In this document: one piece after another, positions 21,251 through 37,249 of the stretch | How the letters are laid out: each line of letters opens with the position of its first letter | Position numbering within the stretch: position 1 is the stretch's first letter | Assembly (NCBI GenBank): GCA_963666285.1 | Contig: OY762711.1 | DNA: 64,000 nucleotides | Source of the DNA: Sedimentisphaerales bacterium | GTDB taxonomy: Bacteria > Planctomycetota > Phycisphaerae > Sedimentisphaerales > SM23-30 | Strand: one strand, 5' to 3' | The notes under the pieces: generated by a model | Databases searched by the model: none | Seen by the model: the letters and a program-made list of their open reading frames with translations, nothing else | What the model was told of the DNA's origin: nothing | Position numbers and translations under genes: made by a program

Positions 21251-21691
21251 ATGGAAACTACAAATACAATCTCAAATTTTGACAACGTCTTGGAAACACA
21301 AACCGAATCTACAGAAGAAGTTCTGGCAAGCAGAGAAGTCACTTTCGGCTGGGAGCTAGTACTTGACCTGTACGACTGCGATCAATTTTCTATCAGCAAT
21401 GAAGAAAAAATCCGCAATTTTGGGCTTGAATTATGTAAAGTAATTGATATGATACCTTATGGTGATCCACTAACACCATACTTTGGAGAAAATTGTGAGC
21501 ATACCAAGGGATACAGCCTGCTCCAGTTTATAGAAACAAGCTCTATAACAGGGCATTTTTCGGAAGGGACAGGCGCGGCGTATCTTAATATTTTCTCATG
21601 CAAGGCTTACGATGCAAAAGCAGCGGAAGAATTTGCGATAAAATATTTTGGTGCAGGCCATTGCGTAGCTCGCCTGACAACCCGCAAATAA
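21251..21691 (+). CDS. Second, divergent AdoMetDC-fold pyruvoyl-dependent decarboxylase
   Basis: GWELVLDLYDC, GYSLLQFIET/SSITGHF, AYLNIFSCK. Confidence 0.8.
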   Translation: METTNTISNFDNVLETQTESTEEVLASREVTFGWELVLDLYDCDQFSISNEEKIRNFGLELCKVIDMIPYGDPLTPYFGENCEHTKGYSLLQFIETSSITGHFSEGTGAAYLNIFSCKAYDAKAAEEFAIKYFGAGHCVARLTTRK

Positions 21692-21783: not shown

Positions 21784-21853
21784 GCAAAGCCGCGATGCAG
21801 CAGCCATCCCTCCTTCCCCAATCAGGCTGTTACGTTCGGCTTTGCTTTTTTTT
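21784..21853 (+). terminator. Long hairpin + U8 terminator with a C-rich loop
   Basis: gcaaagccg...cggctttgc stem extended to about 20 bp, loop ATCCCTCCTTCCCCAATCA, then T8. Confidence 0.75.
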
Positions 21854-32250: not shown

Positions 32251-33558
32251 TTATGAAAACCTAACCAGGTTGTATTTCTTTTTGCCGCTACGAAGAACAA
32301 TAACAGTTTCAGAGGCAAGATGTTCGGTTTTGACAATCATGCCCATATCCGAAACTTTGTTGTTATTAATATAAGCACCACCGTTTTTGATGAGTTTCTT
32401 CGCTTCGCCCTTGGAAGGCAGCAAGCCGGACTCAACAAGCAGGTCAAGTACATTGATACCTTCGGTGAGTCTATCTTTACTCATTGAAGCGCTGGGCACA
32501 TCGGCAAAAATAGATGTCAGTTCGGCATCATTCAGACCTGAAATCTCGCAGCCAAACAGTATATTGGTCGCTTTCTGAACAAGTTCCAGCTGGTCTTTGC
32601 CATGGACAAGTTCAGTAACATATTCGGCGAGCACTTTCTGGGCCTGACGTTTTTCCGGTTCGGTTTCGACCAGTTTCGCCAGCTCAGCAATTTCTTCCAT
32701 CGGCATAAACGTAAACCGCTTGAGCAGGTTAACGACATCGCGGTCATCTACCCGCATCCAGTATTGATAGAAGTCATACGGACGTGTCATCTCTCCGTCA
32801 AGCCAGATGGTACCGGCTTCTGTTTTACCGAATTTCTGACCGCTAGCAGTAGTAAGCAGCGGCGAGGTCATACCAAAAACACCGTCACCGGTAACTTTAC
32901 GGGTAAGATCGATACCAGCGGTAATGTTGCCCCACTGATCGTCGCCCCCTACCTGAAGAATACAGTTTTTGTCACGGTAAAGATGCAGGAAATCGTAGCC
33001 CTGCAAGAGCTGGTAGCTGAACTCGGTATAGCTCATGCCTGCTTCACTGTTAAGGCGTTTGCGAACTGATTCCTTACCCATCATTTCACCAACCCTGAAG
33101 TTTTTACCTACATCGCGTAAAAATTCGATAAAAGAAAATTTACCAATCCAGTCAAAATTATTAACCAGCTCGGCACTATTTGGACCACAATCAAAGTCAA
33201 GGAAATGGGCAAGCTGTTTTCTAATGCCAACCAGATTATCTTCAATAACTTCTTCGGTTAATAACACTCGTTCCTGGCTTTTGCCGGACGGGTCACCAAT
33301 CATAGCAGTAGCGCCACCGACAAGAGCTAACGGTTTGTGGCCAAAACGCTGATATTGAGCGAGCAGCATGATCTGAAGCAGGTTGCCAATATGAAGACTT
33401 TTGGCAGTGGGATCGAATCCTGCGTATAAAGTAACACATGAATCTGTGAGTTTCTTTTCAATTTCCGGAGAAGAAAGCTGGCTGACAAATCCCCTGTCTG
33501 TCAATTCGGTAATTACGTTTTGAATGCTCAAGTCTATGTCCTCTTTGAAGTTATACAC
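32251..33558 (-). CDS. tyrS: Tyrosine--tRNA ligase
   Basis: YAGFDPTAKSLHIGN (HIGH), GGDDQWGNI, KFGKT (KMSKS), C-terminal S4 domain. True start is probably TTG 33531 after GAGGA. Confidence 0.98.
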   Translation of the reverse strand: MYNFKEDIDLSIQNVITELTDRGFVSQLSSPEIEKKLTDSCVTLYAGFDPTAKSLHIGNLLQIMLLAQYQRFGHKPLALVGGATAMIGDPSGKSQERVLLTEEVIEDNLVGIRKQLAHFLDFDCGPNSAELVNNFDWIGKFSFIEFLRDVGKNFRVGEMMGKESVRKRLNSEAGMSYTEFSYQLLQGYDFLHLYRDKNCILQVGGDDQWGNITAGIDLTRKVTGDGVFGMTSPLLTTASGQKFGKTEAGTIWLDGEMTRPYDFYQYWMRVDDRDVVNLLKRFTFMPMEEIAELAKLVETEPEKRQAQKVLAEYVTELVHGKDQLELVQKATNILFGCEISGLNDAELTSIFADVPSASMSKDRLTEGINVLDLLVESGLLPSKGEAKKLIKNGGAYINNNKVSDMGMIVKTEHLASETVIVLRSGKKKYNLVRFS

Positions 33559-34086
33559 AATCTAAGCAAACTAATACTGTTATCGTATTTTCACTTAAGA
33601 TTTTAATACAAAACTAACATATAAGTAATTGTATTCTAACACTTTATATTAATATTAAACGTAAGAATACAGATGCATCATTATACCAAGGAAAATAACA
33701 GATTTCAAGAACGGTTATATGATATACAAATATTTCAACAATCAATAACGATTAGATTACTTACTAAAACAAAGGTACTTATAGCATTTCCATATTCTAA
33801 TAACAGAGTTTAATATATTATTTTGACCATAATATAACAAAGTAATAATAAAAAATTAAAATAGTTATGTGAAAATTTAGAAATAGTAACAGGCATTTCA
33901 GCTATTTAGAGCCGGGTTTTGACACTTTTTTAATTTATACCTCACTGCGTTCTAGTTCCATAAATACGGCATTTTTATTCACTTAAGCTCAAAATATGTC
34001 AAGTTTGGCAAAAATAATAAAATTTTTTTATATTTTTCTCTCGCCATAACCATCATAATATATTATTATTTCTCTTGTTGAAGCAC

Positions 34087-34116
34087 TTGACGCAGATATC
34101 TTTTATAAGATATAAT
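34087..34116 (+). promoter_or_regulatory. Sigma70-type promoter with no downstream ORF
   Basis: TTGACG (34087-34092), 18 bp, TATAAT (34111-34116). Confidence 0.65.
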
Positions 34117-34121
34117 TAAGT

Positions 34122-34306
34122 GAAAGAAACAACAGAGCAAAAGTTCTGATTTCATTGACAACTAAAGAAGACACTCAATTTTGGCTGGTGTGGTTTTGTC
34201 TTTTTTTTTCCCTTCTGAATCCCGACCATAACATCATAAGGGCAGGATCACGCCGGCTTATTTTAAGCTATAAGAAAGCCAGTTCTGAAAAGAGCTGGCT
34301 TTTTTT
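34122..34306 (+). ncRNA. Candidate stand-alone small RNA (~185 nt)
   Basis: Lies between a promoter and an intrinsic terminator; 21-bp stem 34183-34203/34238-34258 with 8 G-U pairs; pyrimidine-rich loop. Confidence 0.65.
34275..34306 (+). terminator. Intrinsic terminator
   Basis: aaagccagttct-gaaa-agagctggcttt plus a T run. Confidence 0.85.
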
Positions 34307-34514
34307 ATTTTAAATACTCCATCTAAAAAGATGGAAGCCCCCCTAAACCATCTCATAAACTCAAGGCAAACAGCCAGGTGTCTCAAGTAAAAAAAACTTT
34401 ACTATTTTGAGAAAAATACGGCGAAAGTTGCTGTCACAATAATGTACTTCACAGAATAAGAATCTAAATTACACAAACAGGTGTAAATATACAACATTTC
34501 TGCTACGTTTTTTG

Positions 34515-34583
34515 AAAAACTGACATATTACAGCCCTAAAATGTCAGTTTTTTCTTTGATGAGATAATAATACATCTTATAAT
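34515..34583 (+). promoter_or_regulatory. 12-bp inverted repeat next to the predicted iorA promoter
   Basis: aaaaactgacat (34515-34526) / atgtcagttttt (34541-34552); TTGATG (34556-34561), 16 bp, TATAAT (34578-34583). Confidence 0.45.
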
Positions 34584-34670
34584 GGAAAGTCTTGGAGTCA
34601 GCTGTATTTTTAATCTAAATACTTAAATAAGCAGAACTTAAACCAGCGACTATATATAGGAGACACTATT

Positions 34671-36416
34671 TTGGCAATATTGATGTCAGGTAATCAGGCA
34701 ATAGCCCGTGGGGCATACGAAGCAGGTATCAGCGTAGCCAGCGGTTATCCAGGTACCCCTTCAACGGAAATACTGGAAAACGTGGTACAATATAAAGATA
34801 CCCTGTATTGCGAATGGGCCCCGAACGAAAAGGTAGCATTCGAGGTAGCAGCTGCGGCGGCTATCAGTGGTGCACGATCAATGGTAACAATGAAACATGT
34901 CGGCCTGAATGTCGCAGCGGACCCGCTAATGACATTGGCATATACCGGCGTCGAAGGCGGCTTTGTAGCTATCGTGGCAGATGACCCCGGTATGCATTCC
35001 TCCCAGAACGAGCAGGACAGCCGTAATTACGCCATATTTGCCAAAATACCATTACTCGAACCATCAGACAGTCAGGAAGCAAAAGACTTTATCAAGCTGG
35101 CTATGGAGCTTTCAGAGGAATTCAAAACCCCAGTAATCCTGCGTACAAACACCCGTATCAGCCATTCAAGGACGCTGGTTGAGACAACCGAGCGGAGCGG
35201 AGAACGCAATGCAGATTTCCAGAAGGACCCGACAAGATGGGTACCAGTCCCATTATGGGCCCGAGAAATGCGTGTAAAGGTAGAAGAGCGTCTGGGAAAA
35301 CTCCGAGAAGCCGCGAATAAATCTAAAGCTAACCGTATCGAATGGCGTGACAAATCACTTGGTATCGTAGTAAGCTCAATTTCATACCAGTATGTGCGTG
35401 AAGTATGGCCGGAAGCATCAGTATTGAAACTTGGATTTTCATATCCATATCCGGACGACCTGATAAAAGAATTTTCAGCCGGAGTAGATAAATTACTGGT
35501 AGTCGAAGAGCTAGACAGTCTCATGGAAGAACACATCCGTTCAATCGGGATAGATTGCATCGGTCGAGATTTTATACCAGGCATAGGTGAACTATCTTCA
35601 GACAAACTACGTCAATGCCGAGCCAATATGGAAGGTCAGAAAGCTCCGGAATACCCAATCGGCGAATATGTATCAGAACTGCCTGCCAGGCCACCGGTCT
35701 TATGTCCGGGCTGCCCACATCGCGGTGTATTTTACGCATTAGGAAAACATGATGTAGTAGTCACCGGCGATATTGGCTGTTACAGCCTGGGCGCATTTAA
35801 ACCGCTGTCACGTCTTGACACTATTCTATGTATGGGCGGCGGAGTATCAATGGCACACGGTATGGACAAAGCCGGTGAAAAACGCAAAGTAGTAGGCATG
35901 GTCGGCGATTCGACCTTTTTCCACTCAGGTATAACCGGACTGCTGAATATCGCTTACAATAAGGGAAATTCAACCATATTTGTTGTGGATAACCGTACAA
36001 CAGCTATGACCGGACACCAGGAACACCCGGGAACAGGGCTAACCCTGCAGGGAGAGCCAACCGTGGAAGCATCGATAGAAGAAATCGGTAAAGCCTGCGG
36101 CATCAAGCGAGTTGTAACAATTGACCCATATGACATACCGACCACCATGGAAAAAATTTCAGCCGAGCTGGAAGCAGAAGAAGCATCACTAATAGTTTCA
36201 AGGGCGGCATGTCCGCTGCGTCATCGACCTGTAGTTGAGAAGGTATTCCAGGTTGACCAGGATGCATGCGTCAATTGCCGAATGTGTACAAAAATCGGAT
36301 GCCCAGCGATTGACGGCGGCAACGACAAACCCCAGATTAATGATGTGCTTTGTATCGCCTGCGGTATCTGCGAACAAATATGCCCGAAAAAATGCATCAA
36401 ACTCAGCGATAAATAA
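34671..36416 (+). CDS. iorA: Indolepyruvate:ferredoxin oxidoreductase alpha subunit
   Basis: GYPGTPSTEI, KHVGLNVAAD, HSSQNEQDSR, RPPVLCPGCPH, GDIGCY, GDSTFFHSG, C-terminal 2x[4Fe-4S] motifs. Confidence 0.96.
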   Translation: MAILMSGNQAIARGAYEAGISVASGYPGTPSTEILENVVQYKDTLYCEWAPNEKVAFEVAAAAAISGARSMVTMKHVGLNVAADPLMTLAYTGVEGGFVAIVADDPGMHSSQNEQDSRNYAIFAKIPLLEPSDSQEAKDFIKLAMELSEEFKTPVILRTNTRISHSRTLVETTERSGERNADFQKDPTRWVPVPLWAREMRVKVEERLGKLREAANKSKANRIEWRDKSLGIVVSSISYQYVREVWPEASVLKLGFSYPYPDDLIKEFSAGVDKLLVVEELDSLMEEHIRSIGIDCIGRDFIPGIGELSSDKLRQCRANMEGQKAPEYPIGEYVSELPARPPVLCPGCPHRGVFYALGKHDVVVTGDIGCYSLGAFKPLSRLDTILCMGGGVSMAHGMDKAGEKRKVVGMVGDSTFFHSGITGLLNIAYNKGNSTIFVVDNRTTAMTGHQEHPGTGLTLQGEPTVEASIEEIGKACGIKRVVTIDPYDIPTTMEKISAELEAEEASLIVSRAACPLRHRPVVEKVFQVDQDACVNCRMCTKIGCPAIDGGNDKPQINDVLCIACGICEQICPKKCIKLSDK

Positions 36417-36664: not shown

Positions 36665-37249
36665 ATGTCAGAAACAAATACAGAAAGTGTTGTACTGGTC
36701 GGAGTAGGCGGCCAGGGAATATTACTAGCCAGCGAAGTAGTAGCATCAGCGGCAATGCATGCCGGTTTTGACGTAAAAACAAACGAAGTTCACGGCATGG
36801 CACAACGCGGCGGGTCAGTAATAGCACAAATCCGATACGGTAAGGAAGTACATTCACCACTGGTATCACTTGGCAGTGCAAAGGTACTGGTGTCACTAGA
36901 AAAAATCGAAGCTCTACGATACAGCAACTACCTGGCAGAAGACGGGCTTGCAGTTGTCAGCAACCAGGTTATTACTCCGGTAACAGTATCCATGGGCGCA
37001 GCGAAATATCCTGACCAGGTCGAAGAAAAACTGGCCAAGACATTTGATCGTCTTATCCTTATGGACGCGGCAAAAATAGCCCAGGATGCCGGAAATATCA
37101 AGGCTGCAAATATCGCACTGTTAGGCGCGATGTCAACCAACCTTGACCTGCCGCAGGAAGCATGGCATGAAGCTATTAAGGGGTGCGTAAAACCTCAGTT
37201 TGTAGAATTGAACCTTCAAGCATTTGAAGCAGGAAAAGCTTTGAGCTGA
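36665..37249 (+). CDS. iorB: Indolepyruvate:ferredoxin oxidoreductase beta subunit
   Basis: GVGGQGILLAS, EVHGMAQRGGSV, NLQAFEAG. Confidence 0.96.
   Translation: MSETNTESVVLVGVGGQGILLASEVVASAAMHAGFDVKTNEVHGMAQRGGSVIAQIRYGKEVHSPLVSLGSAKVLVSLEKIEALRYSNYLAEDGLAVVSNQVITPVTVSMGAAKYPDQVEEKLAKTFDRLILMDAAKIAQDAGNIKAANIALLGAMSTNLDLPQEAWHEAIKGCVKPQFVELNLQAFEAGKALS

Follow-up and report, generated by a model that had tools for sequence, protein, structure and literature searches.

A predicted, uncatalogued small-RNA gene beside tyrS and its genus-restricted family, common to the chromosome and phage-like replicons of a Sedimentisphaerales bacterium

Is the structured stretch between tyrS and iorA a small-RNA gene in its own right, and what would such an RNA do? 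The locus lies in the window, by which we mean the whole 64,000-nt stretch of DNA analyzed. A sequence-only reading had proposed a stand-alone small-RNA gene here, a member of an undescribed class in this lineage that might target ribosome-binding sites or titrate a protein. We compared the locus with the rest of the source genome (G000; 6.35 Mb, 41% G+C, four contigs designated C1–C4) and with three other genomes of the same genus (G001, G002 and G003). Judged from sequence comparison, it is a real, conserved and uncatalogued small-RNA gene, and its family, restricted to the genus, is common to the chromosome and to phage-like replicons. For its function, the reading that we hold to have about an even chance of being right is a predicted small non-coding RNA of ~142 or 185 nt that would act in trans through an invariant UCCC-containing loop.

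Promoter, fold and terminators of the window copy

All parts of the locus lie on the plus strand. A sigma-70-type promoter at 34087–34116 (TTGACG-18-TATAAT) matches the consensus at 11 of 12 positions and predicts a transcription start near 34123. A 6-bp hairpin of the predicted fold, CAGAGC-AAAA-GUUCUG (34133–34148), probably serves as a 5′-end stabilizer and is followed by an A-rich linker that ends in GACAACUAAAGAA (34149–34169) and is unpaired in the predicted fold. The element that turned out to be repeated in the genome occupies 34170–34267 and scores 112 bits against R1, a covariance model built from the repeat. It opens with a single-stranded 5′ motif, GACACUCAAUUUU (34170–34182), which is the hallmark of the family and is invariant at positions 2–13 in 12 of 12 copies. 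The two arms of a 21-bp stem (34183–34203 and 34238–34258), defined by the predicted fold and by covariation, enclose a predicted 34-nt loop, TTTTTTCCCTTCTGAATCCCGACCATAACATCAT (34204–34237), which is G-poor and C/U-rich and contains UCCC twice. The 28-nt core of this loop, CCCUUCUGAAUCCCGACCAUAACAUCAU, is identical in 11 of the 12 copies of the source genome and in all three orthologues, and is presumed to be the functional surface. An interrupted U-run, UAUUUUAAG (UUAUUUU; 34259–34267), forms the 3′ end of the element. Most other copies read UUUUUUUAU at this position, and there the stem itself thus resembles an intrinsic terminator. A second intrinsic terminator, with a 15-bp stem, a GAAA loop and U7, lies outside the repeat at 34272–34307 (stem-loop 34272–34305).

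These parts agree with the sequence-only reading, which had described a near-consensus promoter, a small 5′ hairpin (CAGAGC/GTTCTG), a 21-bp uninterrupted stem with 8 G-U pairs, a 34-nt loop with two UCCC motifs, quoted as we find it, and a GAAA-loop terminator, for which we count 15 pairs and a T-run. The 21 pairs of the long stem comprise 13 Watson-Crick and 8 G-U pairs, with no mismatch. The earlier claim that the stem pairs only as plus-strand RNA is borne out by folding: the predicted energy is −60.6 kcal/mol (z −4.94) for the plus-strand RNA, a value equalled by none of 200 shuffles, as against −39.9 kcal/mol (z −0.43) for the minus strand, which 63 of 200 shuffles equalled. The same reading had regarded some 185 nt as free of open reading frames. 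That is not strictly so, as one ORF is present in the stretch (34155–34313, 52 aa, with a TTG start and no ribosome-binding site), but the locus can still be judged non-coding because the stop codon of this ORF lies past the terminator and because length differences between the copies, not being multiples of three, would break the reading frame.

A weak hint that the element is expressed comes from a sediment RNA library. One 151-nt contig (depth 2) lies inside the predicted transcript, differing from it at one position in 116 nt over 34148–34263, and continues beyond 34263 into sequence like the second terminator. Among the 76 contig pieces in the 20 kb around the locus, it is the sole one at least 99% alike. 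The contig comes from a relative and shows neither transcript ends nor strand, and DNA carry-over is possible; in contig-only data of this kind, the uncovered parts of the gap are uninformative.

Two other hairpins in the window were noted. At 34515–34555, between an A-run and a T-run and immediately upstream of a promoter-like site (34556–34583) ahead of iorA, lies a small hairpin, CTGACAT...ATGTCAG, with GCCCUA in its loop. At 21784–21853, after a gene ending near 21690, a terminator-like hairpin with a C-rich loop, AUCCCUCCUUCCCCAAUCA, is followed by a U-run. The sequence-only reading had taken the latter for kin of the tyrS-linked element; this kinship fails, as the hairpin is single-copy, has no sequence relatives in the genome and is alike in general shape alone.

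Copies in the genome and orthologues in the genus

The genome contains 12 strong copies of the element at 34170–34267, at 81–95% identity. R1 finds two additional divergent copies, for a total of 12–14, and a profile search adds one 3′ fragment (C1:998025–998059). Of the strong copies, seven are chromosomal and the other five are spread over three phage-like contigs of ~65 kb; phage and host copies have an identical loop and are 94–95% identical overall. The repeat begins abruptly at GACACTCAATTTT and ends at the T-run after the stem; it includes neither the promoter nor the 5′ hairpin of the window copy, nor its second terminator.

Selection acts on the RNA. A homologue search with a covariation check, which the sequence-only reading had suggested, found relatives in the genus and four stem pairs with compensatory double changes in the 12-copy alignment, in which 97.5% of the stem cells are paired. 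Neither the observed covariation score nor the observed fraction of paired cells was reached by any of 500 shuffles, and shifting the 3′ partner by 1–3 columns brought pairing down to 42–52%. The loop core is invariant while tyrS is just 73–75% identical between the genomes of the genus, and at G003:2422004 the same loop sits on a wholly different stem.

The copy adjoining tyrS is found in the same place and orientation in all three relatives, where the 5′ hairpin, the stem and the loop are also kept. Scored by consensus alone, the orthologous promoters read TTGACA-18-TATAAT (12/12) in two genomes and TTGATT-18-TATAAT (10/12) in the third. The orthologue alignment shows conservation of both promoter boxes (−35, and −10 together with its TATATAATTAAG context), of the linker (with GACAAYUAAA kept in four of four tyrS-linked loci) and of the element, while the spacer and the early leader vary. 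The long stem of the relatives runs into U6–7, whereas the window copy has UUAUUUU and its separate terminator. The downstream genes differ: iorAB in the source genome, a universal-stress-protein gene in G001 and G002, and a convergent gene in G003. The tyrS-linked unit is therefore not the leader of one operon; a leader of iorAB in particular was rejected, iorA being located elsewhere in G001 and G003. The comparison supports a conserved, stand-alone and non-coding unit that would extend from promoter to terminator.

Promoters are also a feature of other family members. A promoter-like site matching the consensus at 10 or more of 12 positions lies 25–58 nt upstream of 6 of the 12 copies, compared with 4.1% of 5000 randomly drawn positions. 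A 5′ hairpin (−5.1 to −11.7 kcal/mol) is present in each of the eight promoter-bearing copies examined (five from the source genome and three orthologues); its sequence is unrelated from copy to copy, and an A-rich unpaired linker follows it.

The phage-like contigs C2, C3 and C4 (~65.6, 65.6 and 66.6 kb) are 68–75% identical to one another in DNA over their aligned parts and encode an SU10-type portal protein, tyrosine integrases and DnaD/HTH replication proteins. Terminal overlaps, which would point to circularity, were sought on all three and none was found. Each contig has two or three co-oriented copies or variants of the element, at two kinds of site. One is the interval that separates the replication genes from the portal gene; the other, close to an integrase gene, follows a beta-helix (tail-spike-like) gene, together with PEP-CTERM genes on C3. 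Among the chromosomal copies, L010 and L011 are in prophage-like DNA (with excisionase-like HTH, Gp157 and ERF genes), and L009, L012 and L013 follow host-looking genes, which encode two PEP-CTERM proteins and one GH31 enzyme.

Other loops are found on the same scaffold. The motif GACACUCAAUUUU is retained in other-loop variants and also ahead of a short terminator hairpin, and the other-loop variants of the relatives have a TATAAT of their own and lie upstream of homologous beta-helix/PEP-CTERM cassettes. Variants with the same 5′ motif and lower stem were seen at G001:C1:802665, 1287056, 2656178, 3469994 and 3915408 and at G002:C119:4590. The B-type variant has an apical CUCCCA hairpin and the C-type an apical loop reading CCUCCCAU or UCUCCCAU; both are preceded by a conserved promoter-like region, GGGCGA...TATAAT, and followed by TGTCTGGGTAA. 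A further arrangement was observed at C1:997960–998470 (L011 3540–4100, minus strand), where a full element is followed by an ORF for a 97-aa membrane-protein-like product, then by the partial 3′ copy at 998025–998059, and then by a short form, CACACTCAATTTT, with an 8-bp hairpin, a UUCCCCA loop and U7. It has the look of a small cassette that was inserted into the element or recombined there.

As far as searched, the family was found only in the four genomes of the genus. R1 matched all three of the other genus genomes (6, 2 and 3 matches) and had no match in 57 further genomes from the same family and order. A 14-mer of the motif occurs 13, 7, 2 and 1 times in the four genus genomes (13 in the source genome) and once each in 5 of 297 genomes outside the genus, where none of the five matches is followed by the hairpin of the family. 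The reversed control gave single matches in 10 genomes, so the out-of-genus occurrences are at chance level. A 24-mer of the loop had no match in viral contigs or in metagenome contigs; in genome contigs it matched four loci in three Sedimentisphaerales records, which are the relatives. The 16-mer ACACTCAATTTTGGCT matched at least 119 metagenome stretches, and these matches are attributed to chance because none of the 80 for which DNA was scored by R1 exceeded 21.5 bits.

Known RNA classes, loop content and candidate targets

No known RNA class accounts for the locus. A scan of the 64-kb window with Rfam 15, including 6S, T-box and known small RNAs, gave no match at gathering thresholds. Two permissive scans returned nothing but sub-threshold matches to generic shapes of hairpin plus terminator, the best of them the trpB motif (30.3 bits; threshold 59), STnc370 (27.8; 54) and ncr1175 (25.5; 60). 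The trpB motif (RF04312) consists of a hairpin and then a terminator hairpin, as does the window element, but membership was rejected since nothing except generic stems and the U-run aligns and 32 nt at the loop are passed over as an insertion. ARAGORN detected no tRNA or tmRNA over 33500–34700. An integron attC site was also rejected: the copies are dispersed and not arrayed, and paired R″/R′ core sites were not seen by eye against a consensus. Thus, of the proposal of an undescribed small-RNA class, the part that stands is that the family is real and lies beyond Rfam; likeness to the hairpin at 21784–21853 does not define it.

UCCC recurs across the loops of the family, occurring in 8 of 9 loop variants, each with a chance expectation of 1–14%; the ninth has CUCCUU instead. 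One variant loop displays CACCUCCCA and shares CACCUCC with the 16S tail, GAUCACCUCCUUUCU. The ribosome-binding motif of the genome, AGGAG, is an imperfect match to CCCUUCU.

In the reading that we favor, the RNA would be made and stable, with the 5′ hairpin and the long stem protecting its ends, and would work without Hfq, for which no gene was found in the genome. By analogy with the loops of the LhrC and Rsa RNAs, the UCCC loop would base-pair with certain mRNAs at G-rich stretches, and the phage copies may supply or imitate the same regulator. LhrC1–5 of Listeria monocytogenes are multicopy RNAs of ~110 nt with CU-rich UCCC motifs in their loops, including the terminator loop, which dispense with Hfq and pair with the translation start region of the target (PMC4132741). 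The present family is like LhrC in being multicopy, in displaying UCCC in a loop and in its presumed Hfq-independence. It differs in having no sequence relationship, a single 34-nt loop on a 21-bp stem, dispersed copies, many of them on phage-like DNA or in 3′ untranslated regions, and a main loop without general affinity for translation start regions. The Rsa RNAs and RNAIII of Staphylococcus aureus, which are likewise Hfq-independent, expose UCCC in the part that is best conserved and have a 5′ hairpin presumed to be stabilizing in the Rsa RNAs; their Shine-Dalgarno pairing was demonstrated by probing and toeprinting (PMC2790875). The window RNA belongs to a different phylum and has no homology to these RNAs, and the pairing of its loop is a prediction from sequence.

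The copies on phage-like contigs allow a more tentative extension, which we regard as possible and on balance unlikely: that temperate phages captured a host RNA. The three ~65-kb phages would carry promoter-bearing copies with the host loop at their early/late borders and so imitate, top up or hijack the host regulon, and the scaffold of GACACUCAAUUUU, G-U stem and U-run would form a platform for swapped UCCC loops flanking tail-spike/PEP-CTERM cassettes. Prophages of enterohaemorrhagic Escherichia coli are reported to encode small RNAs and anti-sRNAs that touch host RNA networks (PMC4104026). Those RNAs are Hfq-bound and are not known to be near-copies of a chromosomal small-RNA gene of the host, whereas here the phage and host copies share their loop and nearly all of their sequence.

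The search for targets of the main loop yielded no conserved one; particular mRNAs paired through short seeds may still exist. Across the genome, 12-mers complementary to the loop numbered 7, against a mean of 16 for shuffled loops, and the surroundings of start codons showed no excess of loop-complementary words. For the 5′ motif, a count of complementary words by eye, made on a list in which the elements' reverse strands were still present, gave ~10–12 occurrences outside the elements, with a shuffle mean of 19. A duplex scan that included poly-U was swamped by A-rich artefacts, and the 28-nt core was used instead. Binding of the main loop was −6.69 kcal/mol at start regions, which is no better than the −7.67 kcal/mol in internal coding sequence or the −6.86 ± 0.45 of the loop's own shuffles; in the same test, the 16S tail and the B-type loop do prefer translation start regions. 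The iorB site at 36686–36718 (codons 8–18) shows near full-length imperfect complementarity to the loop core (−24.7 kcal/mol), ranks 3 of 4227 ORF starts and lies 2.4 kb downstream of the element in the source genome. Its core, GTTGTACTGGTCGG, is identical in G003 and altered at synonymous sites in G001, and iorB was rejected as a conserved target, as was rplI-dnaB (rank 4), whose site is lost in all three relatives. Neither of these two best candidates checked is thus a conserved target of the main loop. A phage PEP-CTERM gene ranked 29 of 4227 in the scan with the 28-nt core.

A separate observation concerns L010, L011 and L018, where ~210-aa PEP-CTERM paralogues start with MK(I/N)(F/I)MMLLLL behind an identical ribosome-binding site, ACAGGAGAGAAAT. 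An element closes the operon of each, and its loop is complementary at the 3′ end to codons 4–8 of these genes (UUAUGAUGUUAU). As the genes are paralogues, this 10–12-nt match counts as one observation and is not relied on.

The trans-pairing reading is weakened by the invariance of the loop, since 28 unchanged bases exceed what a pairing seed needs. This invariance suits another explanation, in which the RNA binds a protein as a decoy, sponge or scaffold: the loop, and perhaps GACACUCAAUUUU, would dock a host or phage protein, the stem would present it, and the phage copies would titrate or recruit the same partner. The 28 loop bases and 12 motif bases are kept across species and phages, where a seed of 6–10 nt would need fewer, and the lack of enriched complementary sites and of a conserved target points the same way. 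No candidate protein emerged, however. The gene for CsrA is present in the genome, and the protein is an unlikely partner because the loop lacks GGA; a CsrA sponge of the CsrB/RsmZ type, which would carry multiple unpaired GGA motifs, is unlikely on the same ground. In addition, family members swap the loop on a kept scaffold and retain UCCC alone, which suits short pairing motifs better. We consider protein binding unlikely, albeit a serious contender.

Gene borders, attachment sites and the remaining explanations

The positions of the copies other than the one in the window bear on another explanation. All 11 of these copies lie 0–355 nt past an ORF on the same strand, 10 of them within 200 nt, and termination could therefore be their main job. 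Copies without a promoter are 4–100 nt past a same-strand stop codon (C3:41249 is also 355 nt past the nearest long ORF) and occupy the place of a terminator behind PEP-CTERM or tail-spike-like genes. The element might accordingly be mainly a cis-acting terminator or antitermination element at the borders of gene modules, with read-through set by a dedicated factor and the RNA incidental. The U-run at the end of most copies would suit this role, as would the phage copies, which separate the replication genes from the portal gene or follow tail-spike-like/PEP-CTERM genes, and the relatives' promoter-bearing variants, which lie upstream of beta-helix/PEP-CTERM cassettes.

A precedent for such an arrangement is the 6S RNA of phage lambda, a short terminated transcript that runs from pR′ to tR′ between the early/replication and the late genes. 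The copies on C2 and C4 resemble it in having a promoter, a short leader and a terminator between early/replication and late genes. The likeness does not extend to the whole family: the tyrS-linked copy precedes no conserved operon, the same element is also found after the last late genes, and no antiterminator was identified for the window family. The tyrS-linked copy also argues against a cis-acting role more generally, as it follows no gene, the genes downstream of it differ among the four genomes and are convergent in G003, and the window copy combines a weakened U-run with a separate terminator. Moreover, intrinsic termination needs no invariant 34-nt loop. We judge this explanation unlikely as well, though it too is a serious contender.

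Still less probable, and in our view very unlikely, is a phage attachment site, in which attB would be the small-RNA gene of the host, and attP the phage copies next to integrase genes. Some phages integrate into tRNA or tmRNA genes. In favor of this, each of the three phage-like contigs has one copy no more than ~1 kb from a tyrosine integrase gene, the gene order breaks directly after the tyrS-linked copy, and there is one partial 3′ copy, at C1:998025–998059. Against this, each phage-like contig has two or three copies, no prophage is bracketed by direct copies, and in both G001 and G003 the ~10 kb that follow the tyrS-linked copy are free of integrase and phage genes. Phage genes flank L010 and L011 on either side, and identity ends sharply at both ends of the element.

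A selfish DNA repeat (a miniature transposon or REP-like sequence) with no function at the RNA level would fit the 12–14 dispersed, sharp-ended copies, some of them in mobile DNA, but is the least credible explanation of all, given that the arms pair as plus-strand RNA only (the 8 G-U pairs being A-C mismatches on the other strand), that the stem changes are compensatory, that neither a target-site duplication nor a DNA-level terminal inverted repeat was seen at the copy ends, that all copies are co-oriented with the upstream gene, and that the tyrS-linked copy is orthologous in four genomes with a conserved promoter.

We thus return to the small RNA with a trans-acting UCCC loop as the favored reading. 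A limited literature search found no paper title on a small RNA of Planctomycetes, which is not proof of absence. The locus offers a directly testable candidate: its promoter is conserved, its stem covaries, its loop is invariant and its paralogues form a defined set. If the element is merely a specialized terminator, it would still be an annotation marker for the borders of operons and modules in the genus. If host and phage copies are both expressed, they would clearly exemplify a riboregulator that phages have in common with their host, and such sharing, if true, would tie the biology of the phages to the PEP-CTERM surface proteins that are abundant in these sediment bacteria.
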